Positions 6,864 to 35,123 of a stretch of 64,000 nt of DNA are shown here, in pieces. The DNA comes from an uncultured Bdellovibrionales bacterium (GTDB taxonomy: Bacteria; Bdellovibrionota_C; UBA2361; SZUA-149; DAOLCO01). How positions within the stretch are numbered: position 1 is the first letter of the stretch; each line of letters opens with the position of its first letter. The notes below the pieces were generated by a model. The model was not told where the DNA came from, did not search any database, and saw only the letters and a program-made list of their open reading frames with translations. The stretch lies in NCBI GenBank assembly GCA_964612555.1, contig CAZTBW010000004.1:34353-98352 (forward strand). The letters are read 5' to 3'. The position numbers and the translations under genes are program-made.

Positions 6864-6972
6864 CAGGATTGCAGGGTTTATAAAAAATACACTAAAAAAG
6901 CAAGTAGTGTCCGAAATTTAAAAGCTTGAAAAGCCCGAAACTTACTAAAAAGAAACATACTAAAAAAACGGG

Positions 6973-13944: not shown

Positions 13945-14313
13945 CTATAGCACCTCCGGCGCAAGTGAAATAATTTTCATAAAGTCCTTACCCCGAAGCT
14001 CTCTGGCTACAGGTCCAAAAATTCTATTTCCAATCGGCTCTTTCTGGTTATTGAGAAGCACCGCTGAATTTGTGTCGAACCTGATAAGTGAACCATCAGG
14101 TCTTGCGATCTCCTTGGATGTTCTGACCACTACCGCCTTATGAACATCTCCCTTTTTAACTTTTGAGTTAGGCATAGCGTCCTTAATGGAAACAACGATC
14201 ATATCACCAACACTTGCATACCTTCTCTTGGAACCACCAAGCACCTTAATACACATAACCCGCTTCGCACCTGAGTTATCTGCAACGTCTAATATTGTCT
14301 GCTGCTGAATCAT
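13945..14313 (-). CDS. rplN: 50S ribosomal protein L14
   Basis: [28 protein letters not shown] matches L14. Confidence 0.97.
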
Positions 14314-14363
14314 ACCGTCACCTTAAAAACTACTTGCCTCTAAAAACTAAAACACCGCCTAAA

Positions 14364-14654
14364 CTATACTGCACGCTCTACAATTTTCTGAAGTCTCCAT
14401 CTCTTGTTCTTACTCAAAGGACGACTTTCCTTAATAAGAACCTTGTCACCAATGTTGCACTCTTCATTCTCATCATGCGCCATAAACTTGGTAGTAGTCC
14501 TGACAAATTTCCCATACTCCGGGTGTTTCTTGTAGGTCTGCACCGCCACCACTATGGATTTCTGCATTTTGTTACTTACTACAACCCCTTCCTGAACCTT
14601 TCTGTTCCCCCCGGGTGAGTTCTTTGATGATTCCTGTGCAGCTTCCTGTCCCAT
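14364..14654 (-). CDS. rpsQ: 30S ribosomal protein S17 (N-terminally extended)
   Basis: [29 protein letters not shown] is the S17 core. Confidence 0.94.
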
Positions 14655-14679
14655 ACTAATTTGTGCCTATATAAATAAA

Positions 14680-14898
14680 TTATCGCGCTATCGCTTCAGT
14701 AATAGCTTTTTCCTTAATAATTGTTTCGATTCTTGCGATCTTCTTCCTTAATTTTCCAATCCGGGAAGTATCAGGTATCTGATTAACCGACTTACGAAAC
14801 CTGAGATTCAAAAGCTCCTTTTCCGCAGCACCTCTCTCCTCAAGAAGATCTGAAGCATCCTTATCTCTCAAACTTTTTAATTCATCTCTGGATTTCAT
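14680..14898 (-). CDS. rpmC: 50S ribosomal protein L29
   Basis: 72 aa. ELLNLRFRKSVNQIPDTSRI matches L29. Position fits. Confidence 0.93.
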   Translation of the reverse strand: MKSRDELKSLRDKDASDLLEERGAAEKELLNLRFRKSVNQIPDTSRIGKLRKKIARIETIIKEKAITEAIAR

Positions 14899-14930
14899 AC
14901 GTTCCTCAACAATACCTTGCTATAAACTTA

Positions 14931-15359
14931 CTATAAAATAGTATTCTGACGACGAGTAACCACTCTCGTCTTTACCGGTAACTTGGCTCCGGCAAGTGTG
15001 AGCGCTTCATGCGCAGTCTTCTCATCAACACCCTTGATCTCATAAATGATTCTTCCCGCTCTCACCTCAGCAACCCACTTCTCAGGTGAACCCTTACCTT
15101 TACCCATACGAACCTCAGCAGGTTTCTTGGTAAGCGGTTTATCCGGAAATACCCTTATCCAGATACGACCACCCCTTTTAAGGCGTCTGTTAATGGCAAT
15201 ACGAGCAGACTCAATCTGCCTGTTCGTAATCCACTCACCCTCAAGCGCCATCAGACCATAATCACCAAAGGCAACTCCCGTCCCTCTTGTTTCAACACCA
15301 TACAGATGGTTAGCCTGTTTCATCTGTTTTCTATGTCTTACTCTTTTTGGTGATAACAT
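14931..15359 (-). CDS. rplP: 50S ribosomal protein L16
   Basis: [14 protein letters not shown]...[28 protein letters not shown] matches L16. Confidence 0.97.
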
Positions 15360-15419
15360 ATCCGCCTGCCTATACTATAACTAAACTACCATCACGTAAT
15401 TCTTCTCTAACCAGACTGC

Positions 15420-16061
15420 CTACGCAGCATCCAGCTCCTCAGACTCTTCCCCAAGAAACACCCACACTTTCACTCCTATGATTCCATAGGTAGTAAGCGC
15501 TTCTGAAAAACCATAATGAATCTTTGCACGAAGAGTATGAAGCGGAACCCGCCCATCTCTTGACCACTCAGTTCGGGCAATATCAGTTCCACCCAATCGA
15601 CCCGCAACAGAAACCTTGATACCCTCGGCACCCATTCTCATTGCCTTTCCAATTGAATCTTTCATCGCACGACGAAACGCAACCCGCCTCACCAACTGAT
15701 TTGCAATGTTCTCAGCAATAAGCTGAGCATCAATATCAGGCTTTCTTATTTCAATCGGATTAATGGTAACATCACGACCCACGATCTTTTTAAGATCTGC
15801 TCTCAAATCTTCAATGTTCTTACCATCTCTCCCGATTAAAAGCCCCGGACGAGCAGTTCGAATATTAATAGTAACCCTACTCGCAGCCCTCTTGATCTCG
15901 ATATCAGATATACCCGCACCTGAAAGTTTCTTTAAAAGATACTTTCGCAACTCAAAATCCTGCTTAAGTTGCTCGGCATACCCCTTTCCTCGATACCATT
16001 TCGACTTCCAGGTTTCTGTAACTCCTAATCGAAACCCGTATGGATGAACTTTCTGACCCAT
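15420..16061 (-). CDS. rpsC: 30S ribosomal protein S3
   Basis: [14 protein letters not shown] matches S3. Confidence 0.97.
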
Positions 16062-16114
16062 TTAGTATATTCCTATTAACTTTATTAAACTGCCTTCTCT
16101 AAAAAATAAAAACC

Positions 16115-16477
16115 CTACGCCTCATCAAGCATAATGGTTATGTGACTTCTTCTTTTAATAATTGGGGAGGCTGAACCTCTCGCTCTTGGCATGGAACGCT
16201 TAAACCCGGGAGCTTCATTCACCCATGCCGATTTAACCATCAAATCATCAACATCTATATCACTATGTTGTGACTGCGCGTTGGCAACAGCTGAAAGTAA
16301 CAACTTCTCAACTATCGGTGCCGTCTTTTTGTCGCACGTAGCAAGCAACTGAAGCGCGTCCGAAACAGACTTTCCACGAACCAAATCAATAACAAGACGT
16401 GCCTTCTGAGGAGAAACTTTGAAGTTTCTAAGAATCGCCTTTGAAACACATCCATTTTGTAACTGCTGCTCTGCCAT
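16115..16477 (-). CDS. rplV: 50S ribosomal protein L22
   Basis: RNFKVSPQKARLVIDLVRGKSVSDAL matches L22. Confidence 0.95.
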   Translation of the reverse strand: MAEQQLQNGCVSKAILRNFKVSPQKARLVIDLVRGKSVSDALQLLATCDKKTAPIVEKLLLSAVANAQSQHSDIDVDDLMVKSAWVNEAPGFKRSMPRARGSASPIIKRRSHITIMLDEA

Positions 16478-16488
16478 AAATCACCTAA

Positions 16489-16755
16489 TTATTTTCCACC
16501 ACCTGCATGTTTGGTAAACAATCTGGTCGGAGCAAACTCACCAAGTTTGTGACCCACCATATTTTCACTAACAAATACCGGTAAAAACTTTTTGCCATTA
16601 TGTACCGCAAAAGTAAGTCCAACCATTTCAGGAGTAACGGTAGAACGCCTTGACCATGTCTTAATGGGACCCTTGTGCGCCCCTTCTTTTGCTCTCTTTA
16701 CCCACTTGAGCAAACTATTATCAACGAATGGACCCTTTTTAACTGAACGAGGCAT
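16489..16755 (-). CDS. rpsS: 30S ribosomal protein S19
   Basis: [12 protein letters not shown]...[10 protein letters not shown] matches S19. Confidence 0.97.
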
Positions 16756-16764
16756 AACGCTATC

Positions 16765-17586
16765 CTATTTCCTTCTTCGAACAATAAACTTGGTAGTACG
16801 CTTGTTTTTTCTGGTTTTCTTACCCTTTGTAGGAGTTCCCCATGGGCTCACCGGATGTCTACCACCGGATGTTTTACCCTCACCACCACCATGCGGGTGA
16901 TCTACCGGGTTCATCGCAACACCACGTACCTTTGGACGTTTTCCTCTCCAACGATTCACCCCGGCTTTACCAAGACTCACGTTTGCATGATCGGAATTAC
17001 CAACGGTACCGATCGTCGCCATACAAGTAAGAAGAACCATTCTTTGCTCACCAGAGGGCATACGAAGCTGAGCATATTTCCCAATCTTCGCCATGAGCTG
17101 AGCAGCATTTCCCGCACTTCGTACAAGCTTCGCACCTCCTCCGGGACGGAGCTCGATATTGTGCAGAACCTCACCAACCGGAATATCAGAAAGCGCAAGC
17201 GCATTTCCCGGTTTAATCTCCGCACCAGGACCTGATGAAACCACCACACCCACTTCAAGCCCCTGTGGAGAAATAATGTATCTCTTTTCACCGTCCGCGT
17301 ACTGAAGAAGTGCAATTCGGGCACTTCGATTCGGGTCATATTCCACCCCTACCACACGAGCAGGTATTCCGAACTTCTCTCGTTTAAAATCAATTATTCG
17401 ATACTTCTTCTTGTGACCCCCTCCACGACGACGAACCGTAATTCTTCCATTCGCATTACGTCCATCAATCCTGTTTTTCTTAACAAGAAGCGACTTTTCG
17501 GGCGTAGATTTAGTAATATCACTGTTATCCAGTGCTATCTTCCCTCTCTGCCCAGGTGTCATGGGTCGATATTGCTTAAGTCCCAT
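16765..17586 (-). CDS. rplB: 50S ribosomal protein L2
   Basis: [22 protein letters not shown]...[13 protein letters not shown] matches L2. Confidence 0.97.
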
Positions 17587-17608
17587 AAAGTTATCTACCT
17601 ACCGTAAA

Positions 17609-17914
17609 CTACAATCCTTCAATAATATCTAATGAATTACCCTCTTTAAGGGTAACGTATGCTTTTTTGTGCGCTCCTTTACTTGAAAGAAGTGAACCTC
17701 TTTTCTGCTTGCCCGCGCGAGGAGCCACAAGTGTCCTCACCTTTGCAACCTTTACATCAAACACTTGCTCAACTGCGCTCTTGATTTCAATCTTGTTAGC
17801 TTTCGGGTGCACATTAAACACCATCGCAGAACCAGTGCTGCCAACCGTAGCAGACTTCTCGGTAACTCTCGGAGTCAACAAAATCTTATGCGCTCTGTCC
17901 TTGATACTTCCCAT
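17609..17914 (-). CDS. rplW: 50S ribosomal protein L23
   Basis: 101 aa. LLTPRVTEKS...VFNVHPKANKIEIKSAVEQVFDVKV matches L23. Confidence 0.94.
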   Translation of the reverse strand: MGSIKDRAHKILLTPRVTEKSATVGSTGSAMVFNVHPKANKIEIKSAVEQVFDVKVAKVRTLVAPRAGKQKRGSLLSSKGAHKKAYVTLKEGNSLDIIEGL

Positions 17915-17926
17915 AAATCCTCGCTT

Positions 17927-18577
17927 TTATCCTTCCATCCTGCTTTCGAATTCTTTAAGACCGGCTTCTGTAAAAAGTATATACTCGGAATTAACCACAT
18001 CGTAGGTAGTAACTCCGTTTGCAGAAAGAGGCTTAACTCTATCAATGTTTCTGGTGCTTTTTATTCCGACAACATCATTCTCACCAACTACAAGAAGAGT
18101 CTTTTTCCCTTCAAGACCGATTTTTCCAAGTGTTGTTGCTGCCGCTTTTGTCTTTGGCTCACTAAAACCAAATTCAGTCAGAGCATAGCACTTTCCTTCG
18201 CTTACTCTGCTGGAGAGCGCACCACAAAGAACTTTCTTTTTAAGCTTCTTGTTTAAGGAGAACTCATAACTTCTTGGCTTTGGACCATGAGCAACTCCAC
18301 CACCAACCCACACCGGGGAAGTGTTAGAACCGGAACGTGCCTTACCAAGCCCTTTCTGCCTCCATGGCTTCTTACCACCACCACTGGCTTCTGCACGGGT
18401 CTTCACCTTGTGAGTCCCCGCTCTCCACTTGGCACGCTGCCATCTGATAACTTCATGGATAAGACCTGAACGAACACGCACCCCGAAAATCGACACATGC
18501 ACAGGTCGGCTTCCCACTTCAGCACCGGAAGCATCAAACAATTTAATCTCAAGCTTTTCACTCATACTAAACTCCAT
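17927..18577 (-). CDS. rplD: 50S ribosomal protein L4
   Basis: RAGTHKVKTRAEASGGGKKPWRQKGLGKARSGS matches L4. The track ORF starts at a TTG (18595). The ATG at 18577 is preceded by GAGGT; the ATG at 18565 is also possible. Confidence 0.92.
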   Translation of the reverse strand: MEFSMSEKLEIKLFDASGAEVGSRPVHVSIFGVRVRSGLIHEVIRWQRAKWRAGTHKVKTRAEASGGGKKPWRQKGLGKARSGSNTSPVWVGGGVAHGPKPRSYEFSLNKKLKKKVLCGALSSRVSEGKCYALTEFGFSEPKTKAAATTLGKIGLEGKKTLLVVGENDVVGIKSTRNIDRVKPLSANGVTTYDVVNSEYILFTEAGLKEFESRMEG

Positions 18578-18644
18578 TCCACATACCTCACGCAAAAAAA
18601 CTGTCTGCTGAGGGACTTATGAGACAACTCCAAAACTTACGTTC

Positions 18645-19295
18645 TTATTTCTTCGCCTTAATTGCAGTACGAACAAATATTGTTCCATTCTTTGGTCCGG
18701 GGATACCTCCCTTAACCAACAAAAGATTCTTCTCAGGAATCATATCCACAACTTCCACACCCTGAACCATGACACGGTCTACACCCATATGACCCGGCAT
18801 TCTTTTATTTTTGAAAACTCTACCTGGGAACTTTCTACATCCGATAGAACCGGCATGTCTGAAATATTCATGCGTACCATGCGTCTGGGTTTGCGCACCC
18901 TTCATTCCGTGACGCTTGATAACTCCCTGATACCCCTTACCAATAGAAGTTCCAACCACATCTATCTTCGCACCCTTTTCAAAAAGCCCTTCACAGGTAA
19001 TCTCGTCTCCTACTGAGAACTCCTGCTCAGTGTAATATGAGTCCTGTCGAATCTCTTTCAATTCACGAGGCATACCCTTTGCAGCTTTTGCCACATGACC
19101 GGACAGGGGCTTGTTCACTCTCTGAACTTTTTGAGCTCCGATACCTACCTGAAGAGCACGATACCCCTCTTTACCAGAAGTCTTAACCTGAAACACAACA
19201 TTAGGAGGTAACTCAATAGCAGTAACAGGCACACGGGTACCATCCTCTGCAAATATCTGAGTCATTCCAATTTTTTTGCCATACATAGCTTTCAT
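18645..19295 (-). CDS. rplC: 50S ribosomal protein L3
   Basis: YGKKIGMTQIF matches L3. The track ORF starts at a GTG (19304). The ATG at 19295 is preceded by AGGTGAG. Confidence 0.94.
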   Translation of the reverse strand: MKAMYGKKIGMTQIFAEDGTRVPVTAIELPPNVVFQVKTSGKEGYRALQVGIGAQKVQRVNKPLSGHVAKAAKGMPRELKEIRQDSYYTEQEFSVGDEITCEGLFEKGAKIDVVGTSIGKGYQGVIKRHGMKGAQTQTHGTHEYFRHAGSIGCRKFPGRVFKNKRMPGHMGVDRVMVQGVEVVDMIPEKNLLLVKGGIPGPKNGTIFVRTAIKAKK

Positions 19296-19422
19296 AGGAC
19301 TCACCTACAAACAAAACACATTCTAAAATTTAAAATCTTCTTTTTGATATCACCCGGCTCATTGCCCCCCTCTTAAGTAACAAAACTCAAAGGGAAACCG
19401 CTAAGGCATATCCAACAAGAGA

Positions 19423-19731
19423 CTATCTAATTTCCACCTCAATACCGGCAGAGAGTTCCAACTTCATCAAATCATCAATGGTCTGCTGAGTTGGTTCCAA
19501 AATATCAATCAAGCGCTTATGAGAACGTATCTCAAACTGATCACGAGATTTTTTATCCACGTGAGGCGATCTGTTGACGGTAAATCTTTCGATTTTAGTA
19601 GGAAGGGGAATAGGACCTGCAACTTTACCACCAGTTCTCTTAACCGCCTGAACAATTTCCTGAACTGCGGCATCCAATACCTTGTGATCATAACCACAAA
19701 GTCGTATCCGTATCCGCTGACTCCCTATCAT
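19423..19731 (-). CDS. rpsJ: 30S ribosomal protein S10
   Basis: [15 protein letters not shown]...[28 protein letters not shown] matches S10. Confidence 0.97.
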
Positions 19732-19920
19732 ATTAAAATTCCTAACTAATTACACGTTACGCAAAATTTCCACCGTGGGCACGAGCTTATAGCAATATCA
19801 GCTAATTAAATCCAGTGTATCCACGCTTTTTTGTTCATTTTTTTTAATGAAAGTCTTATTCAGACACAAAAAAGAACCTGATATAAAGATAAGAGTTTGA
19901 ATTTATTAAATAAATTACCC
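19732..19920 (-). promoter_or_regulatory. S10-operon promoter/leader region, which also follows the upstream module
   Basis: 189-nt non-coding gap. On the minus strand an A-rich, UP-like stretch (aaaaaaaatgaacaaaaaag) lies upstream of a TATAAG -10-like hexamer. The exact promoter is not resolvable by eye. Confidence 0.35.
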
Positions 19921-22530
19921 TTATCGCTTGAGTCTCTCAACTTCAACAAGCTCTCTTTTGGTAGCATTCACTGTGATGGTGTCTGCTGAGAGGATCTCGG
20001 TAAAGGGTGAGGTCAGTGGTGCAATAAAAGAGACATCAACCTTAGCTTCAGAGCCAAACTCCTCAATATTAACCATTACACATCCGGCAGAAATACTATC
20101 AGTACAAAAGACCGAGCCAGGCATTATCCGCCTCACTTCAGCAAGAGCAAGTAATCGGGCAGATTCATGATTAATTTGACTGGTATATTGTTGAGTTTCA
20201 GGCGACGATATATATCTGGGAAAACAATCAACATATTCCCCACTTTGACATATTGCGGGCATGGATTGGTACATACCCAATGAGATAAGCTCTCCCCGAT
20301 TTGTGGAAGCTGCGCAGTTAGAACGAAACTGGGTACATGCCGGATATGCACCAGAGGAAACCTCACTCATCGGCATGGTAATAGTTCTGTCTCTTAGCTC
20401 AGTAAAATCGAAAATATATTCAGGATTAGTTAAATCCACATCACCAAATGCGTTATTAGCATAAAACCTCAACGCCTGATCAAGATTCTGAAATTGAGGA
20501 GTTCCTCCACTGTAACACCCACTTGTGGGGTTACAATCAAGATTATAGTCAAAGGGAAACTGGGAAACTACATAAGGTCTTGGCTGAGGCAGTGCCCCTC
20601 CCATCCCGTCTTGAATAAATGGCCAAACCCCCTCTACAGGTACAATTTCTTCCTGAATTTTATTTTCCTGAAAAAGAAGTGAGACATCCGGCACCTCATG
20701 GATATTTCCATACCCAGCCCCCTCCTGAGCAATAACAGCCTGAAGCAGCAAATCCCTTCTCTCATCTCCCCCATCAAACCCCTCGTTTTTTCTGTACTGC
20801 CTTACGTAATGCTCCGAAGAAAGCTCTTTAGGGTTATAACCAAACCTTGGCTGCACTGCTGAAGGATTTACTATAGGAACCCCCATAAACCTGTCTGCCG
20901 TCCATGAGAAATGTCGTGAACCATTACTGAGCACAGATGACCAGCGGGGAAGTGGTACCGTAACAAACCCCCCAGTAGGCAAACTCTCAAATGCCGTCCA
21001 TGAAGGATTGGAATTTACAGCAATCACAGATGCCAGATTCTGATTAAATAAACTCCTCCGCTGAGCTTCTTTTGCATTCCAGCCCTCACATGAAGAAAAA
21101 GAACCGGGCTGACCCGCGATCGTCATATTACCACACATATGTCGCGTCTGTTCCAGTGGCACCCCTTCACTTGAAAGACAAGATGGAACATCAACAAAAA
21201 CAAGTTCCGGAAGCTGCATCAGATCAAGACCCGAGGGATTAGGCGCATGCGAAAAAGGATTTCTCGGGTCACCTAAAGGTAAAAATTCCTCCCACGTATT
21301 CCTTGCCTGATCAAAGGGAAGCCATTCACAGACCTTTCTCGTAAGTGATCTCCATTGATTACCGGTCTGACGATGCCAGGCAAGATACGTCCAGTCCTGA
21401 GAGGCAATATACGACATACCCCCTGCGCTGTTATACAAAAATGCGTTTTGATAGTTTGGGTCGGCATTCGCAGCGAAATCTCCCCACTGATTGGACTGAA
21501 ACGGAGGAAGATCAATAGAAGGATAGGAAGTAAAATAATTAATCAGATCATCAGAATTCCGAATTGCACTTCGCACCCGTGATAAAAACGCCTCAGGGTT
21601 GCAACTGTAGACGGTAATCACAACAAATTGACGAGAATTAGTAACCGCAAAGGGTCTTCCGACTCCACCCGGCACCGCCCCGCTACCAAAAAAATTTCTA
21701 TAGTGATTATCCAGCTCCGTATAGCTCAGCCCTACTTCCGAGGGCACTCCATACGTTGCCAAATCATTCGCATCAGTGTGACACACCGGACTACCCCCCA
21801 AAAGAAGCCACGGCTCCGGAGTAGCCCGTTCAGGTAAAACCATATGACAGGGAAAGGCTCTTGCAAAATCAGTAGAGGGAACCCAACTTGCATCCATATC
21901 GGCACACGCAGGGTCTTCTGCCCTGAAGTTCACTCCCTCACACCAGGCAGTATCAATATACGTCGTACTTAAATTAAAATCAGCCCCAAAAGGAACCTCA
22001 ACTCTGTTATAAACCGTACAAGACCTCGTCTCAAAACCACCTCCCGGAAGCGGTCTTTCAAAATTCCCCCGAACATCCGCCCTCAGCACCGCATAGCTAT
22101 TAAGTAATCCGATAAACCTGCTGGGACGAACTGACTTCTCAGCCCACTCGACATTATGATTGGCAGTACTTACCTCATATGAATTATAACTCGCCCCATA
22201 TACATCACGATACACCTGCCCCTGATATTGATACGTATCAAGTTGCACCTCAGAAGGACCATCCACCAAAGGATAGCCAAACCACTCAGCTTCGGAAAAA
22301 GTCTGCTCCGTATCCACCAGAACACTCCTGCAAGACTCCGCAGCGTCACTTGCGGTCAGACAACGGGCAACTCTTCTTGCTGCCTGGTCTGCGGCTGATT
22401 TCGCAGCCGTAAACTGCGTCAGATTATAAAAACTGAAAAGAAACAGTGCTCCCCCTACTGTTGAAAACATAAGGGGCAACATCCCACTGCTGCCTTTTTC
22501 ATTATCACAAGAAAACAATCCAAATCTCAT
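19921..22530 (-). CDS. giant TadE-like pseudopilin-type protein with a cysteine-rich C-terminal domain of about 800 aa and unknown family
   Basis: The N-terminus EKGSSGMLPLMFSTVGGALFLFSFYNLTQFTAAKSAADQAARRVAR resembles TadE-family leaders. I count about 20 Cys after the hydrophobic helix. The ATG at 22530 is preceded by GAGGTG; the track start at 22539 is a GTG. Confidence 0.55.
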   Translation of the reverse strand: MRFGLFSCDNEKGSSGMLPLMFSTVGGALFLFSFYNLTQFTAAKSAADQAARRVARCLTASDAAESCRSVLVDTEQTFSEAEWFGYPLVDGPSEVQLDTYQYQGQVYRDVYGASYNSYEVSTANHNVEWAEKSVRPSRFIGLLNSYAVLRADVRGNFERPLPGGGFETRSCTVYNRVEVPFGADFNLSTTYIDTAWCEGVNFRAEDPACADMDASWVPSTDFARAFPCHMVLPERATPEPWLLLGGSPVCHTDANDLATYGVPSEVGLSYTELDNHYRNFFGSGAVPGGVGRPFAVTNSRQFVVITVYSCNPEAFLSRVRSAIRNSDDLINYFTSYPSIDLPPFQSNQWGDFAANADPNYQNAFLYNSAGGMSYIASQDWTYLAWHRQTGNQWRSLTRKVCEWLPFDQARNTWEEFLPLGDPRNPFSHAPNPSGLDLMQLPELVFVDVPSCLSSEGVPLEQTRHMCGNMTIAGQPGSFSSCEGWNAKEAQRRSLFNQNLASVIAVNSNPSWTAFESLPTGGFVTVPLPRWSSVLSNGSRHFSWTADRFMGVPIVNPSAVQPRFGYNPKELSSEHYVRQYRKNEGFDGGDERRDLLLQAVIAQEGAGYGNIHEVPDVSLLFQENKIQEEIVPVEGVWPFIQDGMGGALPQPRPYVVSQFPFDYNLDCNPTSGCYSGGTPQFQNLDQALRFYANNAFGDVDLTNPEYIFDFTELRDRTITMPMSEVSSGAYPACTQFRSNCAASTNRGELISLGMYQSMPAICQSGEYVDCFPRYISSPETQQYTSQINHESARLLALAEVRRIMPGSVFCTDSISAGCVMVNIEEFGSEAKVDVSFIAPLTSPFTEILSADTITVNATKRELVEVERLKR

Positions 22531-22541
22531 ACAACGCACCT

Positions 22542-23231
22542 CTAGTTTCTAAATGATTTAATCTGATGCACCTGTGCCCCGGTACGAGAACCAAGCAGCA
22601 TCTGCTGCCACCCGGGCGAAATCGCAGGAGACACGGCTTCAATCGTAATTAAAAATATCAGCGATTCAGGAAGATACCGAAGCAGAGGATTAAAACCCGG
22701 TGATAAAACTCCATATTGAGTATCATTTGAGTTCCCGGGAAATCTTGATTCCAGATACGCTTCTGCTGAAACAAGAGGCAGTCCCGGCACATACTCCTCT
22801 ATGTTGAAAGCGGTAGGGCTGGAATATTTAAAATCAAGTAACTGAAAGGAATCAACCGTACCCATTTCAGGATTAACAGCAAGCACGACCGGGCGCACTT
22901 CCACTAAAAAAGGTGCATCCCCGGTAGCAAAACGAATCCTCCTTTCGTTAATTACCATCTGCATCCTTTCCCCAATCCGGGTAGTCAAAGTCACTACCCG
23001 CTCCCGATCAAGCACTCGTCCCTCAGAAGAAATTTGAAATGGCTGGACTGCTTCATCTATAACCTGAAAATGTCCCCCCTCCCGCACCACATCCCGTAAC
23101 ATTGCACGATCAAGCATCAATATCCCGATATCAGTACCAACAAAGAGCAGCCCAAGTGCAAGCGGCATAAACAAAAGCATTTCAAGCATACCATTTCCCA
23201 ATTCAGATATACTCAAGTATGAAATTCTCAT
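22542..23231 (-). CDS. TadE/TadF-like pseudopilin-type protein (229 aa)
   Basis: GNGMLEMLLFMPLALGLLFVGTDIGILMLDRAMLRDVVREG is a TadE-like N-terminus. The ATG overlaps the upstream stop as ATGA. Confidence 0.55.
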   Translation of the reverse strand: MRISYLSISELGNGMLEMLLFMPLALGLLFVGTDIGILMLDRAMLRDVVREGGHFQVIDEAVQPFQISSEGRVLDRERVVTLTTRIGERMQMVINERRIRFATGDAPFLVEVRPVVLAVNPEMGTVDSFQLLDFKYSSPTAFNIEEYVPGLPLVSAEAYLESRFPGNSNDTQYGVLSPGFNPLLRYLPESLIFLITIEAVSPAISPGWQQMLLGSRTGAQVHQIKSFRN

Positions 23232-24766
23232 GATGCAAGTACCACCTTTCGTTCCTTTGCCAGAATACTCTGTACCACCTGAAAAATACTGCTTTCATCC
23301 ACAAAAAAAGAGGATATACCCGGTATGAGATCATACTGAAGTGAACGTGCCTGCAACAAGGCACCTGCATCTTCAGTAAGACCCGGATGAACATAGGCAA
23401 GAACATACATCCTTAAACGCTCATCATGCTCTAAAATCTCAAGCACCTCCTGCATTTCGGTCTCGGCAATATCGGGTAAGGCATCTACCAGAAGAAAAAC
23501 AATACGTGAGGCACTTCCAGCCAGATTCCCTCTGGAGACGGCACTTGTTTCAACAGAAAGTTTCTCCTCTTCAATAAGGAGAGAAGCTCCCGCACGTGCA
23601 GTCCGGGAAATATTTGAAAAATCCGGCTCATGAGAGTTTCCCCGCACCGCGCGATAATACAAGGCTTCCCGAAGAGAAATATTTCTCTGAAGAAAACAAT
23701 CAGAGAGTTTACTCTGAAAGGGGTTGGGGTAGTGTCCATTTGGGTCGGTAAGAGGGTTCGTGCTGAAAAGTTCATCACACTCCCTTGAATGTTCTGAAAA
23801 AGATTCCGGCAGTGCATATCGACTTGAAAAGTGTGAGTAGTACACACAGGCTTCATCACATATTCCCGAAGGAGATTCAAAATAGTTTGACCAGAAAGGG
23901 AGATCATTAGCGGAAATCCCTTTGATAAAACTATAGGGAGCCACCCCCGGCTGATCACCCGGGGTTCCCATCACCGCTATCCTGTTAAGTGGTGAAGCCT
24001 GAATGGTATCAGCAATCATAATACCTGAAAGCTTAAGGGGCATATTTGCCGGATTATAACAGGTTTGGGTTACCCACCTTCTAAATTCGGGTAATGAAAA
24101 CTGAGCGGGCTTCCACCAATCAGTCCAGCCAAAGGGAGGAGCCGGCTCTGGTGATGGCTTGATTAAAGGTGGTGGTGCAAGAGTAAAATATTCACTTGGT
24201 GCCCAATCGAATTCACCTCCAAAGGAGGCATAGCCGATATCTCCGGATGAAAAATCTGCAAGGTTTGGTGGAACGGACGGTCGAAGAGAAATCCCATCAG
24301 AAAGAATAAGCACTGAGTCGAGTGGAACAAGCCTTGCTTCTGATTCCTGCCTCACCTGAAGCACCATCTCCTGATTTGTAAAAGCTCTGAGAAAAAAATC
24401 GATCATAGATGCATGAGCACCTGTAATAACGACCCTGACCCGAGATTCCCCTACAAAAGCACCGCCTGCAAAAGCATCAGGGTCCTCTTCCAGAACTCGA
24501 AGAGAACTACCTTTTGAGGCAGCACGGGCGTTAAATTCAGAAGCAGACTGTGCAAATGCACTCCTTGCAGCACTTGCAAAAGGAAGATGCCCCGCGATCT
24601 GGAGTGAGATTCGATCTGCTTCACTCTGTGCTTCTTCACGAAGTGACTGCCAGGAACTGATGTCCACAATGATCATCAATAATGCAATAGCAACAGGCAG
24701 TACAAAAAGTACATAGAACGCCACATTGCCATTTTCCTCACTGTCCCTAATCAAAAGACTCTCCAA
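23228..24766 (-). CDS. TadG-like (Tad_N) protein with a possible degenerate vWA-like body (512 aa)
   Basis: ENGNVAFYVLFVLPVAIALLMIIVDISSWQSLREEAQSEADRISLQIAG resembles the TadG/Tad_N motif. LDSVLILSDGIS and RIVFLLVDALPD resemble the vWA beta1 and beta4 strands, with the MIDAS motif not intact. TTG start, exact position uncertain. Confidence 0.5.
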   Translation of the reverse strand: MESLLIRDSEENGNVAFYVLFVLPVAIALLMIIVDISSWQSLREEAQSEADRISLQIAGHLPFASAARSAFAQSASEFNARAASKGSSLRVLEEDPDAFAGGAFVGESRVRVVITGAHASMIDFFLRAFTNQEMVLQVRQESEARLVPLDSVLILSDGISLRPSVPPNLADFSSGDIGYASFGGEFDWAPSEYFTLAPPPLIKPSPEPAPPFGWTDWWKPAQFSLPEFRRWVTQTCYNPANMPLKLSGIMIADTIQASPLNRIAVMGTPGDQPGVAPYSFIKGISANDLPFWSNYFESPSGICDEACVYYSHFSSRYALPESFSEHSRECDELFSTNPLTDPNGHYPNPFQSKLSDCFLQRNISLREALYYRAVRGNSHEPDFSNISRTARAGASLLIEEEKLSVETSAVSRGNLAGSASRIVFLLVDALPDIAETEMQEVLEILEHDERLRMYVLAYVHPGLTEDAGALLQARSLQYDLIPGISSFFVDESSIFQVVQSILAKERKVVLAS

Positions 24767-25017
24767 TTACTGCTTTTTCTGAATACGCACCTCATTATCG
24801 CAATATATTCAGAACTGTCTCATCTATAAGAATCAGGTATTTAAACTAAAAGAAAAACCGAAGTGAAAAAGGATAATAGTAGTATATTTGTCAAAAAATA
24901 GCCATCCCCGCCTGTCTTTTTTTAAAAAGATCGTGCCCAACCAGATTTCAAATACTTAGAAATTTTGCACTGCACATAGTTATTGCGCATATTCAGATGA
25001 CAGACACCTGCTTATAC

Positions 25018-26139
25018 TTATTTTCCAGGTCTCTTATTTTTAAAAATAAACGGAAAAACCAGAAGTACAAGAGTCAGCCCTGCGGCTATCTGGGAAAACA
25101 TTCCTGAGTGATGATGGTGATGATCATGATGTGAAAGACTCTGATGTGCCCCTGGGTGTGGAATAATTCCTCCATCACGTGGGATACCGTATTCAATCAA
25201 AAGCCCGAAAGAAAGTGAAACAAAAATAATCGAACCTACATAATAAACCGCACCCCTTAAACCAAATTCTTTTTTTGCGGCAAGCACGGTACTGACATTT
25301 GTTGCAGCTCCTGCAAGCAGGAAAACCAGAACCGCACCAACGCTAAGCCCCTTTGCATAAAGTACTGCCGCAATGGGGGTAGAAGAGGTAGCGCATATAT
25401 ACAAAGGAAAGGACACCACCAGAGCAAGACCCATTTGAAGCAATGGGTCGGAAACGGTCTCAGTCAGGAACTCAGCCGGCAGGAGCGCAACAAAAATCCC
25501 CGACACAAGAAATCCGATTAAAAGCACCACTGAAAGATCCTTTGGAAGAACATAAAAGGCAAAAATCATTGCTTCACGAAACACCTGAAAAAAACTCTTC
25601 TTTTCAGAAGACTGTGTTTCTGCACTACTGAGCCCATGATGAGTATGATCATGGCAGCACGAGGCAGCATGAGGAGTTTCTGTATCTTCAGATTTACTTT
25701 TCTTCCCGGCAGAATCATTTGATTCCTTAATCGACTCAACCAGAGTACCCACCAGAATCCCTGACACCACCGCCGCAATAACCCGAAAGACAGCAAACAC
25801 AATACCCAAAAGCCCCTGGGTAAGAAAAAACGCGCCCACTCCAATCTCAGGCACACTGGTCATAAAACTTGCCGCTGCACCCTTACTCACTCCCCTTTGT
25901 CTGAGAGATTTCATAACCGGAATAATACCACAGGAACACAAGGGGAAGGGTATTCCCATCATGGTTGCACTGAATATTGAACTAAAACCCGGCTTCTTCA
26001 AGAACTTATTAATCAGGGTAGCCGGAAGAAAAACATGAATCACCCCGGCAAGAAAAAAACCAAAAAGCAACCACGGTGCAGCCTCTACGACCGTGTCCCA
26101 GGCAGCATGGAGAATTGATAAAAAAACAGATTCGTTCAT
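25018..26139 (-). CDS. UPF0718/ArsP-type permease with His/Cys-rich segments (putative metal transporter)
   Basis: Polytopic, 373 aa. PLCSCGIIPV is the CSCG permease motif. Central loop has CCHDHTHHG and the C-terminus has HQSLSHHDHHHHHSG. Confidence 0.65.
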   Translation of the reverse strand: MNESVFLSILHAAWDTVVEAAPWLLFGFFLAGVIHVFLPATLINKFLKKPGFSSIFSATMMGIPFPLCSCGIIPVMKSLRQRGVSKGAAASFMTSVPEIGVGAFFLTQGLLGIVFAVFRVIAAVVSGILVGTLVESIKESNDSAGKKSKSEDTETPHAASCCHDHTHHGLSSAETQSSEKKSFFQVFREAMIFAFYVLPKDLSVVLLIGFLVSGIFVALLPAEFLTETVSDPLLQMGLALVVSFPLYICATSSTPIAAVLYAKGLSVGAVLVFLLAGAATNVSTVLAAKKEFGLRGAVYYVGSIIFVSLSFGLLIEYGIPRDGGIIPHPGAHQSLSHHDHHHHHSGMFSQIAAGLTLVLLVFPFIFKNKRPGK

Positions 26140-27350: not shown

Positions 27351-29093
27351 TCAGGGATTGGAGGTTTTCACATTCACTACCATTTCCTCTTCCCCATCAA
27401 GATATATCCTCGCCCCGGAAATACCAACTGCCGAAAGTGCTTTTATGAAGAGTTCGGGGCTGAATTCAGTTGAAGAAATATCCGTTTGAGCACCAAAGGC
27501 TCCACTCATTGCAAACACCTTATCCAGTGCCTTTGTAAGGGTACTGAAATTTATAAACAATGAACCCAGATCAGTTTTCGCACCGCTCTCGGCAGAAAAA
27601 AGTTTCTTAAGCGAAACCAAAGGTACGGTACCTGAAGCCGAGGGAGACAAGAGCATCTGCACAATATCTCTGGAAGAGGTAACGGCAAGTGTAGCATCTC
27701 CTCTAGAGATAATCGAGACCTCTTCTCCAAGTGCAGTAAGAATAGTACTTGTATCATCACTCATTGCTATCCAGTCCGCACCCGGGGGAACCATGCTGTT
27801 TGACTGTAAGGCGGTTTTTACTATCTCTTTTAGCGCCTCCAAAACCCTCTCCTTATTTTCCACTTCAAGCAGGAAAGATATTGCAGGTACGGGGAGCAGA
27901 CGCTGCGTATCAACTGCGGACAGAAAAAAACCAATAGAGCTAACATCTGAAAGAATACTTAAAAGTCTCGGTTCATAATTTAAAATAATATCCCGATTTT
28001 CCTGCAAAAGCTTTTCAGTGAACAGCTCTGACAACTCCAAAGAAAGAATGGTATTTTGAGGTATCGTCTCTCTTCTCTTAACAGAAGATGTAAGGGTGCC
28101 CTCCTGATCTTCAGACTTTAAAAATTTCCTGATTTTCTCCGATGCCTTCACTCTTAACTCGGCACCATACGTACTCTCAAAACTCTGGTTAAACGCCATC
28201 AACACTTCTTCAGAAGAAGACTTGTCTGATTCCTGCTTTAAAAGTCCCCCACCAAAAGCTTCCTGATGCATACCAAAAGCAAAAGGAAATGCCGTTTCCG
28301 GAGCACCCTTAAGACCACCAAAGATCACACTCTTTTTAAGATATTCCAACTTACCTGCAAGAGAAATAAACTCCCGATCGGAAAATATTTCGGGTAACTT
28401 CCCTTGTCGTTCCAGAAACACTTCTTCGATAACTTCCTTACTGGAAGCTGAAACAATATAAGAATCTTTCAGTCCAAGGTACCTGAAGGCAGGAATGATC
28501 GCCCCTTTATCCTCAAACTCCAACACACTTAACTCCCCGCTTTGTATCACCTTGACGGGAGTCCCCTTTTTACTGACGGCATCCGCTATTTCTTTTGCCT
28601 TACTTCCCAGATTTTCCAGTTTTAATCGGGTAATAAACCCCGCATGGTCTTCATCATTTTCACTTTGCACATCAGATTCTGAATGTACAGACTCAGCACG
28701 AGAGATAAACTGAGCCGACTCCATGGTGTACACATCGGAAACTTTCTTTCCATTTAATAAACCTGCCTCTTCAAGTATTGATTCAAATCCACTGAGAGAA
28801 GAATCGATACGCTCCTTTATTTCATCCGGAAGGCTCTTTTCCCAATATTCTTTCTGCTTCCTGGCAACACCATCAGTATTTAAAAAAAGAAGAAACCCAT
28901 AAGTACGCTTGGGTAACATCGACACCACTGAACCATCAATTGCGCTCAGAAAATCATCAAAGACTGTCTCGGGAGCACTACCGGACAATTTCACCGATTT
29001 CTTTTCTGAAGAAGCATCCTCCTTTTTGGAGCAGGCTCCTGAAAAGATAAATAGTAAGAACAATAAAAATATAGTTGCTTTGTGTATTCTCAT
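27351..29093 (-). CDS. large secreted protein or lipoprotein of unknown function (about 580 aa)
   Basis: Signal peptide MRIHKATIFLLFLLFIFSGAC with a lipobox-like SGAC. The track start at 29096 is a GTG and the ATG is at 29093. I recognise no catalytic motif. Confidence 0.5.
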   Translation of the reverse strand: MRIHKATIFLLFLLFIFSGACSKKEDASSEKKSVKLSGSAPETVFDDFLSAIDGSVVSMLPKRTYGFLLFLNTDGVARKQKEYWEKSLPDEIKERIDSSLSGFESILEEAGLLNGKKVSDVYTMESAQFISRAESVHSESDVQSENDEDHAGFITRLKLENLGSKAKEIADAVSKKGTPVKVIQSGELSVLEFEDKGAIIPAFRYLGLKDSYIVSASSKEVIEEVFLERQGKLPEIFSDREFISLAGKLEYLKKSVIFGGLKGAPETAFPFAFGMHQEAFGGGLLKQESDKSSSEEVLMAFNQSFESTYGAELRVKASEKIRKFLKSEDQEGTLTSSVKRRETIPQNTILSLELSELFTEKLLQENRDIILNYEPRLLSILSDVSSIGFFLSAVDTQRLLPVPAISFLLEVENKERVLEALKEIVKTALQSNSMVPPGADWIAMSDDTSTILTALGEEVSIISRGDATLAVTSSRDIVQMLLSPSASGTVPLVSLKKLFSAESGAKTDLGSLFINFSTLTKALDKVFAMSGAFGAQTDISSTEFSPELFIKALSAVGISGARIYLDGEEEMVVNVKTSNP

Positions 29094-29117
29094 CACTTTT
29101 TTCCGGATATTTAAAAA

Positions 29118-29726
29118 TTACCTACTGCCTGATTTAAAGAAAAATCTAAAATATAAAATTGCCAGGAAGTCATAAATAACATGAAAGATAATTGGTGCCC
29201 ACAAAGAGCCAAATAATTCATATACCAAACCAAACACAATCCCTATCAAAAAATAGAGAATTAAAAGTTGATAAAACCTCCTCAACTCAAAAGCAAAGTG
29301 GGCAAGGGAGAACAGGACACTTGTAAAAATCACACCAAGATAAGGCTGTAATAACCCTCTGAAAAAAAATTCTTCTCCTATACCCGCCGCAAGAGAAATG
29401 ACTACTGCATGCCAGATACCAAGCCTTGAGACAAGAGGAACGATCATCTCATCGATAAAACCGGTCATCCACCTCCACTCTCTCTGATAACTCACCCGTA
29501 CAAGAGCAGTATTACATACAAAAAGAAGAACCGCTAAAAGCACGCCAAAAACAAGCTCTTTGACGTAAGGGTATCTGGGGTATTCTAATCTCCCGAGAAA
29601 AAAAGAAGTTACCAGGTAAATCAGGAGTAAAACTCCTTCACAGAGCAGGGCAATAATAATAAGTTGATCTGGAGAAATACCGTCCAGATCTATTACTGGA
29701 TCAGCCTTGTTTTTTGGTGTATTCAT
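29118..29726 (-). CDS. CPBP (CAAX-type) intramembrane metalloprotease family protein
   Basis: Motifs GIGEEFFFRGLLQ (EExxxR), SLAHFAF (FxxxH) and FHVIYDF (HxxxD/N). Confidence 0.85.
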   Translation of the reverse strand: MNTPKNKADPVIDLDGISPDQLIIIALLCEGVLLLIYLVTSFFLGRLEYPRYPYVKELVFGVLLAVLLFVCNTALVRVSYQREWRWMTGFIDEMIVPLVSRLGIWHAVVISLAAGIGEEFFFRGLLQPYLGVIFTSVLFSLAHFAFELRRFYQLLILYFLIGIVFGLVYELFGSLWAPIIFHVIYDFLAILYFRFFFKSGSR

Positions 29727-29881
29727 TATTAACAGCTTTTAGCATAACGTATTGAGGGTGAGTCAATATATTACCTTATACATGTCAATTTTAGGCTATT
29801 TTTTTATGAATTTAAGACCGATATCCTGATTGGTGTATTTTTAATCAATAACCCGGATTATCATTTTTCTGAACCTCGATA

Positions 29882-31504
29882 ATGAAACTATCTCCTTCTA
29901 ACATATCGGCACTAGAAAAGATCAAGGAAGGGAATGAGCTGGAAAAAGCCCTGAAGGATTGCCAGCGTCAAGAATTATTATCATTATACACCCCGAAAAA
30001 TATTGCCCTTGCAAGTGAGCATATTGAAACACTTCTGGAGGAGCACTCTGATGATGATGTGCTTCGCTTGTTATGGGCACACGCTCAAATCAGTAAAGAC
30101 ATTCTGCCTCTCTCTTTTATCGCTTCATCGGTATATGAAGTGCTCCTGAAAAACGAAATTCTGGAAAAAGCTCCTCGCCTGACGTTTCTCGTAGTGGCGC
30201 CTCTGGCACTTCAACTTGGCACCCATAAAGAGTATCGCATTGGCTTACTTATCCTCGGTCATATACTTTCATCTCATACCCCGCATTTTTTCATGACAGA
30301 AGAAGAGCGACACGCCTTCTTTGAGCTTATAGACTGGTTTATACAGGAAGAGAAAACTCTTGCAATCGAGCGCAAGGAAGCAAAAAATTATTTTGACTTT
30401 ATCGCTTCAGTCTCAGACAATCTCGCTAAAGCCCTCACCAAAAACAACTTAAACATTTCCGGCTCAAACATTTCTATTTCAGATACCGACTCTCACCCAC
30501 TCGATCAACATTCAGCCCCGACATATAAACCCGGGATGTCTGAAGACTATACCCTTGGCGAACCTACGGAAGCCTTTAAAAAATCAGAACTCCCACCTTT
30601 ACCGGACGGTACGGTTACTCACACAGCACACTCCTCTTCACTCAAAGCTTATTTTTATCCTCTTTCTTTTTTCATTCTGGTTTTTGCCTTATTTTATAAC
30701 AGGGAAAGCATAGCCGCCTTTACTTCATCACTCTTTCCTGCAAAAATTCCTCTTGAAGAGAGACTGCTCTTGTCGCTGAATCAGAATAAAACCAATGCCC
30801 CCCGGATAAATCCGCTTCCTCCATTTTATTCCCTGTCTATTTCTGCAAACAGTTCACTTGAAAAGATCAATGAGCGTCTGAAAAATATTTCTTCCGGAAG
30901 TGGTGAAACAAGCAGAAGCGACTCCACCCCACCTGTTTCCGGAACCTATTCCGAGCTTGAGGATCTAGAGCCACTGAACAATATTCCTGAAAACGGCGGC
31001 GTCATTCCGGAAGGGAACATTCCCGAGGCAAAACCAATACCCACATTTAAAGGAACTCCCTCCGCATCTTCCATACATTCCCAGAGCACTGAAAATCTTG
31101 GTGGCACTGAAAAAGTTCAGGACATATCCGGAAAGGCACCCCCTCCCTCACTTCCTCCCCATACACGCAACCAGCAAGCGCAAAATCAGGGAACTCCGGC
31201 AAGACAATCAAACTCCTCAGAACCAAATGAACTTCCAAACAGACCTCAATACCCGGTACTGAACGAAAACGATGTAGAAAAATTCAACCCACCCCTTGTT
31301 TTTGAAACAATTTCAGCCACCAACGTACTCTCAGCCCCCACCTTCTTTTCTCCAAGCATTGTCCGCCTCCAGGCACAAAGCCTTATTGAAGTCACTGCAA
31401 GAATCGGAGTATGGCTAGAAATCCGCTCCAACGCCGGACAAACAGGATACATCCTCGCCCAGGACGCAAAACAATCAGACCGACCCAATAGAAGACTTCA
31501 GTAG
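29882..31504 (+). CDS. bitopic membrane protein: helical N-terminal domain, one TM helix, a Pro/Ser/Asn-rich linker and a C-terminal SH3b-like domain
   Basis: 540 aa. TM helix YFYPLSFFILVFALFY. The C-terminus VRLQAQSLIEVTARIGVWLEIRSNAGQTGYILAQD resembles bacterial SH3. Confidence 0.45.
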   Translation: MKLSPSNISALEKIKEGNELEKALKDCQRQELLSLYTPKNIALASEHIETLLEEHSDDDVLRLLWAHAQISKDILPLSFIASSVYEVLLKNEILEKAPRLTFLVVAPLALQLGTHKEYRIGLLILGHILSSHTPHFFMTEEERHAFFELIDWFIQEEKTLAIERKEAKNYFDFIASVSDNLAKALTKNNLNISGSNISISDTDSHPLDQHSAPTYKPGMSEDYTLGEPTEAFKKSELPPLPDGTVTHTAHSSSLKAYFYPLSFFILVFALFYNRESIAAFTSSLFPAKIPLEERLLLSLNQNKTNAPRINPLPPFYSLSISANSSLEKINERLKNISSGSGETSRSDSTPPVSGTYSELEDLEPLNNIPENGGVIPEGNIPEAKPIPTFKGTPSASSIHSQSTENLGGTEKVQDISGKAPPPSLPPHTRNQQAQNQGTPARQSNSSEPNELPNRPQYPVLNENDVEKFNPPLVFETISATNVLSAPTFFSPSIVRLQAQSLIEVTARIGVWLEIRSNAGQTGYILAQDAKQSDRPNRRLQ

Positions 31505-31520
31505 ATTAGCCCGCTAAAGA

Positions 31521-32666: not shown

Positions 32667-32780
32667 TTCGTTCCCTGTCTCATGAGAAGATGCTCACCTC
32701 TCTACTCCCAGTATACCTTATTTTTAGATTCCTGAAGATACCAATTTTATCCTTTTATTTTACTCTAGAATGACCTTTCA

Positions 32781-33527
32781 TTATGGCGCTCCCATATAAC
32801 TGCACCAGATAAAATACTCCTGATTCTCACTCTTCTTGCCCTTAAGTCTGGAAGGAAGGAGACCTTTCTCCTTCATATGATGAGTACCCAGAACTTCTCT
32901 TACCCTGGAAAACGCAATTTCAGCATCCGAAGGGTTTTTTAATATCCCTCCATCGGCAATATAATGTGGTTCAAGCTCGAATTGAGGCTTGATAAGCATC
33001 AAAAGATCAGCTCCATTTGAAATCACCTCTGCAAGAAAAGGAATGACTTTTGAAAGACTAATAAAACTGACATCCACAACGACAAAATCAGGAACAGGCT
33101 CGAACCCTATAGTGGATAATGCATTTGCATGAGTTTTTTCGTAGACCCTTACCCGAGAATCAATTCTGAGCTTATGGTCAAGCTGATTAGTCCCGACATC
33201 AACTGCATACACCAGAGACGCTCCATGCTGAAGCAGACAATCAGTAAACCCCCCCGTTGATGAACCCAGATCAAGACACACCCTTCCTTCAGGGCTCAGC
33301 AAAAACTCCTCAAGTGCACCCTCAAGTTTTTCCCCACCACGACCTACGTAGCGAGAATTTCCACCTCTGATTCGAATATCAGCATCAAGAGGCACCATTG
33401 TTCCGGATTTTGTAATGGGGACGTTATGAACCAACACTTCGCCGGCAAGAATCAATGCCTGCCCCTTCTCACGTGTCGGTACAAGCTTTCTTTCCAGTAA
33501 AAGCTTATCTAATCGCTGTTTACTCAC
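32781..33527 (-). CDS. tlyA: TlyA-family rRNA 2'-O-methyltransferase (haemolysin A-like)
   Basis: S4-like N-terminus SKQRLDKLLLERKLV plus an FtsJ-type methyltransferase (CLDLGSSTGGFTDCLL). GTG start. Confidence 0.85.
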   Translation of the reverse strand: MSKQRLDKLLLERKLVPTREKGQALILAGEVLVHNVPITKSGTMVPLDADIRIRGGNSRYVGRGGEKLEGALEEFLLSPEGRVCLDLGSSTGGFTDCLLQHGASLVYAVDVGTNQLDHKLRIDSRVRVYEKTHANALSTIGFEPVPDFVVVDVSFISLSKVIPFLAEVISNGADLLMLIKPQFELEPHYIADGGILKNPSDAEIAFSRVREVLGTHHMKEKGLLPSRLKGKKSENQEYFIWCSYMGAP

Positions 33528-33540
33528 TCAGACAGAGACA

Positions 33541-35028: not shown

Positions 35029-35123
35029 TTAATTATTTTAGCCTGACACTAATGAATATGATTATTGTGTTTAAGATTACTTGGGATTAGCAAAAGATAC
35101 AAGTTATTGTAAATAAACGCTTA

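Follow-up and report, generated by a model that had tools for sequence, protein, structure and literature searches.

What is a set of three pilin-like genes doing directly upstream of the S10 ribosomal protein operon, and which machine, if any, would display the products? The question is raised by a 64-kb stretch of DNA from an uncultured Bdellovibrionales bacterium (contig CAZTBW010000004.1; the whole stretch is hereafter the window), in which three minus-strand genes, here called A, B and C, occupy positions 19921 to 24766. An original prediction, made from the letters of the window alone, had described them as an orphan set of pseudopilins of the Tad type. Our analysis led us to a related reading, to which we assign a probability of about 0.6, in which the trio is an orphan priming and tip module of minor pilins belonging to a type IVc (Tad/Flp) pilus; the genes for the ATPase, platform, secretin, major pilin and prepilin peptidase would lie at other sites of the same genome.

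Organization of the three genes

The three genes are arranged as follows.

23228-24766, minus strand: gene A, open reading frame (ORF) of 512 amino acids (aa), predicted TadG/CpaL-like large minor pilin
22542-23231, minus strand: gene B, 229 aa without Cys, predicted small TadE-like minor pilin
19921-22539, minus strand: gene C, 872 aa counted from a GTG at 22539, giant Cys-rich protein with a predicted pilin-like start

All three ORFs were reproduced at the positions first reported for them, together with the ATGA at 23228-23231, in which the TGA stop of A overlaps the ATG start of B, and the alternative starts of C, which are GTG at 22539 (872 aa) or ATG at 22530 (869 aa) and follow the TAG stop of B at 22542-22544. 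A, B and C are translationally coupled on the minus strand. The ATG at 22530, which was picked by the gene caller and has AGAGG 8 nucleotides (nt) upstream, is a likelier start of C than the GTG, and the likely start of A is the TTG at 24754 chosen by the same program, with GGAGAG upstream and a product of 508 aa. The N-terminal sequences quoted in the original prediction were exact and the pattern it described was confirmed, as each protein begins with a short polar leader, Gly and about 20 hydrophobic residues that run into an Ala/Arg-rich helix. In all three families the Gly that ends the leader before the hydrophobic segment is conserved.

Conservation of the trio in related genomes

The A-B-C arrangement was found in the same order and orientation in 11 contexts, namely the window and ten others (L001, L003, L002, L089, L097, L098, L086, L087/L088, L095 and L096), among which L095 and L096 are the more distant. 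Their source names are those of Oligoflexia or 'Bdellovibrionales' metagenome-assembled genomes (MAGs). Identity to the window proteins in the ten other trios was 28-52% for A and 24-47% for B, and ribosomal protein L3 was 68-82% identical to that of the window in the six contexts that also held the S10 operon. By this comparison sequence change has been much faster in A and B than in the ribosomal proteins encoded beside them, as would be expected for exposed proteins. No tad core gene was found beside the trio in any of the 11 contexts (0/11), where the DNA examined reached at most 10 kb per side for most contexts and 8 kb in total for L096. The description of the trio as an orphan was therefore upheld when relatives were compared, and an ordinary end of a tad locus was rejected on the same grounds.

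In seven of the nine near-clade contexts the trio immediately precedes the S10 operon, with an Amt ammonium transporter gene between them in three, while the genes on its upstream side vary and include Rrf2/ArsP, antitoxin-like, YacG, DEAD helicase and TatA genes. In the window the upstream neighbours encode an ArsP-type permease and an Rrf2 regulator, and rpsJ follows downstream at 19423-19731. As the arrangement persists across relatives with L3 proteins only 68-82% identical, the adjacency of the trio and the S10 operon is old. No terminator-like site was found in the window scan between the stop of C and rpsJ (19732-19920), so transcription may possibly read through from the trio into the ribosomal operon. 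Promoter and terminator counts in a scan of 19300-25200 were level with those in shuffled sequence, and the sole promoter-like site seen near the trio, at 24794-24823, was weak.

Two of these contexts showed further rearrangement or gene content. In L002, genes for L24, L14, S17, L29 and L16 (14996-16767) lie on the opposite strand after rplB, which suggests that its S10/spc ribosomal cluster is inverted or mis-assembled in the metagenomic contig. In L086, the opposite strand adjoining the trio (14114-20873) encodes a MoxR-type AAA_3 ATPase, a 1464-aa protein with a transglutaminase core and a 433-aa protein without a Pfam match. The set recalls MoxR/vWA-type systems, and a BatA/MoxR-type vWA (von Willebrand factor A) system was considered for the trio; the genes concerned are on the opposite strand and were found in the L086 context only.

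N-terminal features of protein B

Three features of B are relevant to its assignment.

23076-23192, minus strand: B residues 14-52, TadE-type hydrophobic N-terminal segment
23196-23198, minus strand: codon of B Gly12, predicted cleavage residue just upstream of the hydrophobic segment
23181-23183, minus strand: codon of B Glu17 (+5), part of the G-x4-E motif

The motif of B reads G12-N-G-M-L-E17-M-L-L, and G12, E17, M18, L19 and P23 were invariant in an eight-sequence alignment. G-x4-E was kept in 10 of the 11 B orthologues read, the exception being L096, which stands outside that alignment and has Asp at +5. The TadE model (PF07811) matched the same region in the scanned B orthologues at 14-26 bits, and L087 alone (26.4 bits) exceeded the curated cut-off. 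A six-frame pattern search found B to be the only ORF of the window with G-x4-[ED] and a hydrophobic stretch, and a six-frame motif scan found no prepilin motif of the type IVa pilus (T4aP) or type II secretion system (T2SS), of the G-[FM]-T-L-[IL]-E type, anywhere in the window.

N-terminus and predicted fold of protein A

Protein A can be divided into two main parts.

24614-24730, minus strand: A residues 13-51, Gly13 and then a hydrophobic alpha1N segment of Tad/TadG-like type, matched by PF13400
23231-24322, minus strand: A residues ~149-512, predicted vWA-like alpha/beta domain, split by low-confidence insertions that contain Pro/Trp and Cys

The Tad model (PF13400) matched A residues 13-51 with 24.3 bits, above its curated cut-off of 22.3, and the same segment of the A orthologues gave 26.8 (L095), 22.3 (L001, equal to the cut-off), 22.2 (L096), 21.1 (L089), 18.4 (L087) and 16.1 bits (L086). 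The orthologues keep the motif G-[NT]-[IVA]-x-[FL]-Y-[VLA]-x-[FVI]-[VI]-L-P; both Gly and hydrophobic helix are retained, with an invariant Tyr at +5 and Phe or Leu at +4, and not the F/E of the G/A-x4-F/E site. The N-termini of A and B could be aligned profile to profile (hhalign, E 7e-4).

An AlphaFold2 (AF2) model of A (predicted local distance difference test, pLDDT, 67; predicted TM-score 0.66) is made up of an N-terminal helix of 50 residues, a small helix/strand module and an alpha/beta domain with low-confidence insertions. The best Foldseek matches of the model in the PDB were all vWA folds (Ku70/80, TFIIH p44, C2a, the Rea1 MIDAS, or metal-ion-dependent adhesion site, domain, VWF A1 and CMG2), with E values of 7e-3 to 0.1, probabilities of 0.9-1.0 and target-normalised TM-scores of 0.4-0.58. 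The model thus suggests that A carries a vWA domain at the level of the fold only. Together with the PF13400 match, this bears out the original assignment of A as Tad_N/TadG-like. No Pfam vWA match was found in A.

Protein C and its family

Gene C likewise falls into two parts.

21997-22494, minus strand: C residues ~16-181, leader ending in Gly, hydrophobic helix and long beta-sheet; the most conserved part of C
19924-21996, minus strand: C residues ~182-872, multi-domain region with 18 of the 20 invariant Cys and no known fold relative

The AF2 model of C (pLDDT 78) has a helix at residues 26-58 and a beta sheet with strands between 68 and 178, so that the N-terminal part is modelled as a pilin-like module, beyond which about 700 residues form mixed domains. 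As modelled, A and C would each combine a pilin-like helix with beta modules. Twenty Cys of C are invariant within the near clade. A Foldseek search of the PDB with C gave nothing meaningful (best E 0.36), PDB sequence-profile searches with profiles of A, B and the C superfamily returned chance matches only, and NCBIfam searches with A and B gave nothing useful.

A profile search among 1.84 billion proteins identified 112 cluster representatives as relatives of C, mostly of 850-1000 aa and with 18-33 Cys. Their matches fall into two separate stretches, at positions 10-160 and 520-866; distant homologues have the N-terminal ~150 and C-terminal ~340 residues in common and their middle cannot be aligned. 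About 75 members open with a leader that is short and polar or basic, go on to a Gly (G-S-x-x-L) and then have some 22 hydrophobic residues, and many continue with AVEQAAR..ARC(L/I)TPTDP, the +5 residue usually not being acidic. PF07811 and PF13400 had no match in 11 of 13 other family members scanned. Two distant members that keep Glu+5, P0065 and P0082, matched the full TadE model with sub-threshold scores of 18.3 and 15.1 bits. The sequences of these two proteins suggest a TadE-like pilin as the origin of the giant C family, which would since have lost Glu+5 in most members.

Other searches added no relatives. A scan of genome contigs with the single protein C found none, and a second, word-indexed search with the A-family profile gave no further members. 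In metagenome contigs, an alignment scan returned 600 pattern matches with no true relative among them, and a 59-nt degenerate pattern had 0 matches.

A distant homologue of C in a tad operon

The Pfam scan of the window covered all non-ribosomal ORFs of at least 150 aa and a few shorter ones, the ribosomal block and ORFs below 150 aa being mostly left out, and it identified no T2SSE, T2SSF, secretin, RcpC, TadZ, Flp or prepilin peptidase among the ORFs scanned. The earlier statement that the 64 kb holds no tad machinery gene therefore stands for non-ribosomal ORFs of at least 150 aa.

Independent support for the predicted link between the gene set and a Tad machine came from another genome. 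In L091, from a Bdellovibrionales MAG (CAZDWZ010000006), positions 8-6987 hold a compact operon encoding RcpC, T2SSE (TadA), T2SSF (TadB) and T2SSF (TadC), and then a member of the C family, P0057. This protein (956 aa; E 2.7e-26 with the C profile) is encoded by the last gene of the operon, in which gene ends overlap. No ORF of at least 120 aa was found downstream of P0057, and the ORFs of at least 40 aa in the following ~1 kb are all shorter than 110 aa. The C homologues in L092 and L093 stand alone.

Proposed assembly and function of the module

If the trio is a tip module, A, B and C would each enter the inner membrane through the N-terminal hydrophobic segment, and prepilin peptidase would then cut off their leaders. 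The three alpha1N helices may bundle as a heterotrimer on the TadB/TadC platform and so nucleate the polymerisation of Flp by TadA. Within this complex B would be the adaptor to the major pilin Flp, since it is the only subunit with Glu+5, and A and C, which are without Glu+5, would sit at the apex, an arrangement with a precedent in GspK of type II secretion pseudopili. GspK is the apical T2SS pseudopilin and lacks Glu5. After extension the complex would cap the fibre, exposing the vWA-like domain of A and the disulfide-stapled domain of C, both fast-evolving parts. The former may serve adhesion or mechanosensing and the large C domain may bind the target, which could be the prey envelope, a surface or other cells. 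A prey-contact role of the trio is speculation.

A bolder extension of this model, which we find doubtful but worth stating, is that the C family would be an undescribed class of Tad tip proteins specific to Bdellovibrionota/Oligoflexia, with a conserved pilin-like base and C-terminal domain and a hypervariable middle. Together with a MIDAS-less A and the adaptor B, it would set target or prey specificity, and the position upstream of S10 would give growth-coupled, constitutive expression by read-through.

Alternative explanations

A number of results weigh against the tip-module reading. Among the ORFs scanned, neither the 64 kb nor the flanks of any trio contain a core gene of a Tad, T2SS or type IV pilus system, and P0057 of L091 is only ~23% identical to the C of the window, with no A/B pair before it, as the preceding gene is tadC. 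The B of the window scored 19.3 bits with PF07811, below the curated cut-off of 22.9, which confines the original TadE-like assignment of B to the family level, where L087 and the conserved G-x4-E motif sustain it. The Pfam Tad and TadE models are themselves short (43-47 positions) and hydrophobic, which makes single matches weak evidence. Glu+5 is missing from both A and C; the model of A is of moderate confidence (pLDDT 67), with Foldseek E values of 7e-3 or weaker, and A is without the canonical DxSxS MIDAS, its family having S156-D157-x-x-S/N/T-L-R162-P163 after the first vWA-like beta strand. A MIDAS is frequent in TadG/CpaL-type proteins and is not strictly defining for them. The claim that C too is TadE-like was not supported, as the C of the window had no match in Pfam or NCBIfam, hhalign of B against C gave nothing, and the two divergent C-family members reached only sub-threshold scores.

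These results can alternatively be interpreted as an envelope complex that is anchored in the membrane and takes no part in a filament. Its helices would be uncleaved signal anchors, and the vWA-like domain of A and the Cys-rich domain of C would serve as a stand-alone adhesin or sensor, placed either in the periplasm or at the cell surface. The lack of filament machinery near any of the 11 trios, of Glu+5 in A and C and of a pilin model match in C would all suit such a complex, as would Pfam Tad and TadE matches that are short, hydrophobic and near threshold. We nevertheless consider it unlikely, because all three families keep the Gly before the hydrophobic segment, 10 of the 11 B orthologues read have G-x4-E, the models of A and C contain pilin-like helix and beta modules, a C homologue is embedded in the L091 tad operon, and the architecture of A parallels that of CpaL. 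A second alternative, that the proteins are minor pilins of a T4aP or of a T2SS-like pseudopilus and are processed by a PilD-type peptidase, draws on the processing of the Tad pilin Flp1 by PilD in Bdellovibrio bacteriovorus, which indicates that assignments of machine and peptidase are fluid in the phylum, and the window is uninformative on the filament systems of its genome. This explanation seems to us quite improbable, since the N-termini match Tad-specific Pfam families and not the N-methylation motif, the window has no motif of the G-[FM]-T-L-[IL]-E type, and the C homologue of L091 sits with RcpC and paired T2SSF genes of TadB/TadC type, which are Tad-specific.

That the ORFs are non-functional or mis-called, or form a mobile island recently acquired beside the S10 operon, is hardly credible. 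The GC content of the trio (0.46, versus 0.43-0.44 in its flanks) and the unusual position upstream of rpsJ would agree with such an origin. Chance or mis-called ORFs are ruled out by the order and orientation kept in ten other contexts and by the many invariant residues, including the 20 Cys of C, and a mobile island was rejected on the old synteny with S10 and the absence of mobility genes, as no integrase, transposase or tRNA was found at the trio borders. The conservation data thus effectively refute this explanation, and the reading of the trio as an orphan Tad tip module is compared with characterized systems below.

Comparison with known pilus tip complexes

In Myxococcus xanthus, the minor pilins KilL, KilM and KilN make up the 'Tip' complexes of the Tad-like Kil pilus (Herrou et al. 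2025, PMC12075869). By description, both sets consist of three adjacent genes, those of the Kil Tips encoding minor pilins of the TadE/F/G type and those of the trio encoding proteins that each have a leader, Gly and hydrophobic alpha1N segment. Both also have one small pilin-like subunit and one very large subunit with a distal domain without a PDB relative, many Cys or predicted disulfides (20 invariant Cys in C), and hosts in or next to predatory 'delta' lineages. The published description of KilN, a pilin-like module and then a large domain without PDB relatives, matches that of C (PMC12075869). Most Kil Tip clusters are likewise encoded away from the machine genes, three of the four Myxococcus tip clusters lying away from kil loci (PMC12075869). 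In contrast to the Kil Tips, the trio has two large subunits (A, 512 aa; C, 872 aa) and A has a predicted vWA-like domain, none being described for the Kil Tips; the likeness is one of description and not of sequence comparison, the trio being known here from genes and single-chain models only.

Homologues of the Kil core occur in complete genomes of Bdellovibrionota, and Tip-like complexes have already been predicted in Bdellovibrio by Foldseek (PMC12075869). The Tip hidden Markov models (HMMs) found nothing outside Myxococcota except in a few Pseudomonadota genomes, and their result is given as NA for Bdellovibrionota complete genomes (PMC12075869), which makes sequence-level homology of the trio to Kil Tip1-4 unlikely. 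The concept of an orphan Tad tip is already known; what is new here are the families to which the proteins belong and the way the module is composed.

In Caulobacter crescentus, the TadG-type minor pilin CpaL has been modelled at the tip of the Tad pilus with CpaJ and CpaK (PMC12607857). CpaL has a leader with a G/A-x4-F/E-type site, where A has a polar leader and Gly with Tyr at +5, and it resembles the model of A in its pilin-like helix and small sheet and in its vWA domain interrupted by an insertion (PMC12607857). It differs in having a complete MIDAS (D160, T162, S164, T470, D515), where A has S-D-x-x-S/N/T. CpaJ and CpaK are both small, unlike the giant Cys-rich C, and no sequence-level relation was detected.

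TadE, TadF and TadG of Aggregatibacter actinomycetemcomitans close the flp-tad-rcp locus. They share with the trio the three-gene set and G-x4-E in the small pseudopilin, and their N-terminal Pfam families (PF07811 and PF13400) are those matched by B, below the cut-off in the window, and by A. The trio differs in lying outside a tad locus, in its order (TadG-like, TadE-like, giant protein, and not E-F-G) and in a third member that is not a TadF-sized pseudopilin.

In B. bacteriovorus the tad loci are dispersed, with a lone tadG that is needed to invade prey, and both the attachment to prey and its invasion depend on the Tad system; the PilD of this species processes the Tad pilin Flp1 (bioRxiv 10.64898/2026.07.08.737194). 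It shares with the trio the phylum-level neighbourhood and the placement of a tip-protein gene away from core loci, a likeness of gene arrangement and not of sequence comparison, the host of the trio being an uncultured lineage. The lone tadG and dispersed loci of this species, like the Myxococcus tip clusters, provide a precedent for the orphan placement of the trio.

Small sets of minor pilins also prime assembly and end at the tip in other filaments, such as GspH-I-J-K of the T2SS and FimU-PilVWX-PilY1 of the T4aP. vWA modules occur at pilus tips in PilY1 and in PilB of the Streptococcus sanguinis PilA/PilB/PilC set, and S. sanguinis PilB was among the Foldseek matches of A, at rank 43. The features that the trio would share are the logic of priming followed by a place at the tip, an apical subunit without Glu5 and a vWA domain at the tip. 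These systems differ from the trio in pilin class (T4aP and T2SS N-termini) and machine, and have no sequence relation to it.

Other features of the window

SecY of the window (8586-9929) shared no more than 48-50% identity with any of the best 80 GTDB representatives retrieved (Desulfobacterota-type MAGs, Binatia, Bdellovibrionales), which indicates a deep and poorly represented uncultured lineage. The Oligoflexia/Bdellovibrionota-like character of this lineage, a label taken from the source names of the MAGs that carry homologues, means that the analogy to predators is not far-fetched.

Envelope-hydrolase and protease genes are dense near the module (29118-36323, 44184-44993 and 51209-52057) and encode, among others, an Rce1-like protease, a patatin, an S41 protease with PDZ, an M23 peptidase next to FtsEX and two trypsin-like proteases. 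This gene list agrees with the protease-rich content that had been noted for the window, a content that is not specific to predators.

Four ORFs had no Pfam match at E 1e-3 or better, at 27351-29096 (581 aa), 52926-53954 (342 aa), 53943-55865 (640 aa) and 60265-61377 (370 aa). The 581-aa protein has a counterpart of 587 aa in L005, also without Pfam match and in the same position beside the gene for the Rce1-like protease, a likeness of size and position. An open frame of at least 753 aa without a stop extends past the end of the window on the plus strand (~61740-64000) and is for that reason absent from the ORF lists; its C-terminal part resembles, by eye, a histidine-kinase core after PAS-like repeats. 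At 354-1772 the window encodes a membrane protein of the Wzy_C (O-antigen ligase) family, which includes pilin O-glycosylases. An Rfam scan of the window found two tRNAs only.

Implications for Tad pili in Bdellovibrionota

It was not until 2025 that the tips of Tad pili were understood to be interchangeable complexes of minor pilins, which determine what a pilus binds and, in Myxococcus, which prey is killed (PMC12075869). If our reading of the trio is correct, a tip module unrelated in sequence would be widespread in uncultured Oligoflexia and Bdellovibrionales, and C would represent a new family of giant, disulfide-rich subunits. Orphan tips of this kind escape the tad locus finders now in use, since two of the three proteins do not reach Pfam cut-offs, and the module would provide a searchable set of motifs (leader-G-S-x-x-L, hydrophobic helix and AVEQAAR..ARC(L/I)TPTDP). 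If the proteins are instead signal-anchored in the envelope, the trio would still be a conserved three-protein envelope complex. As a tip module, A, B and C would offer candidate determinants of target recognition for an understudied, predator-related phylum.

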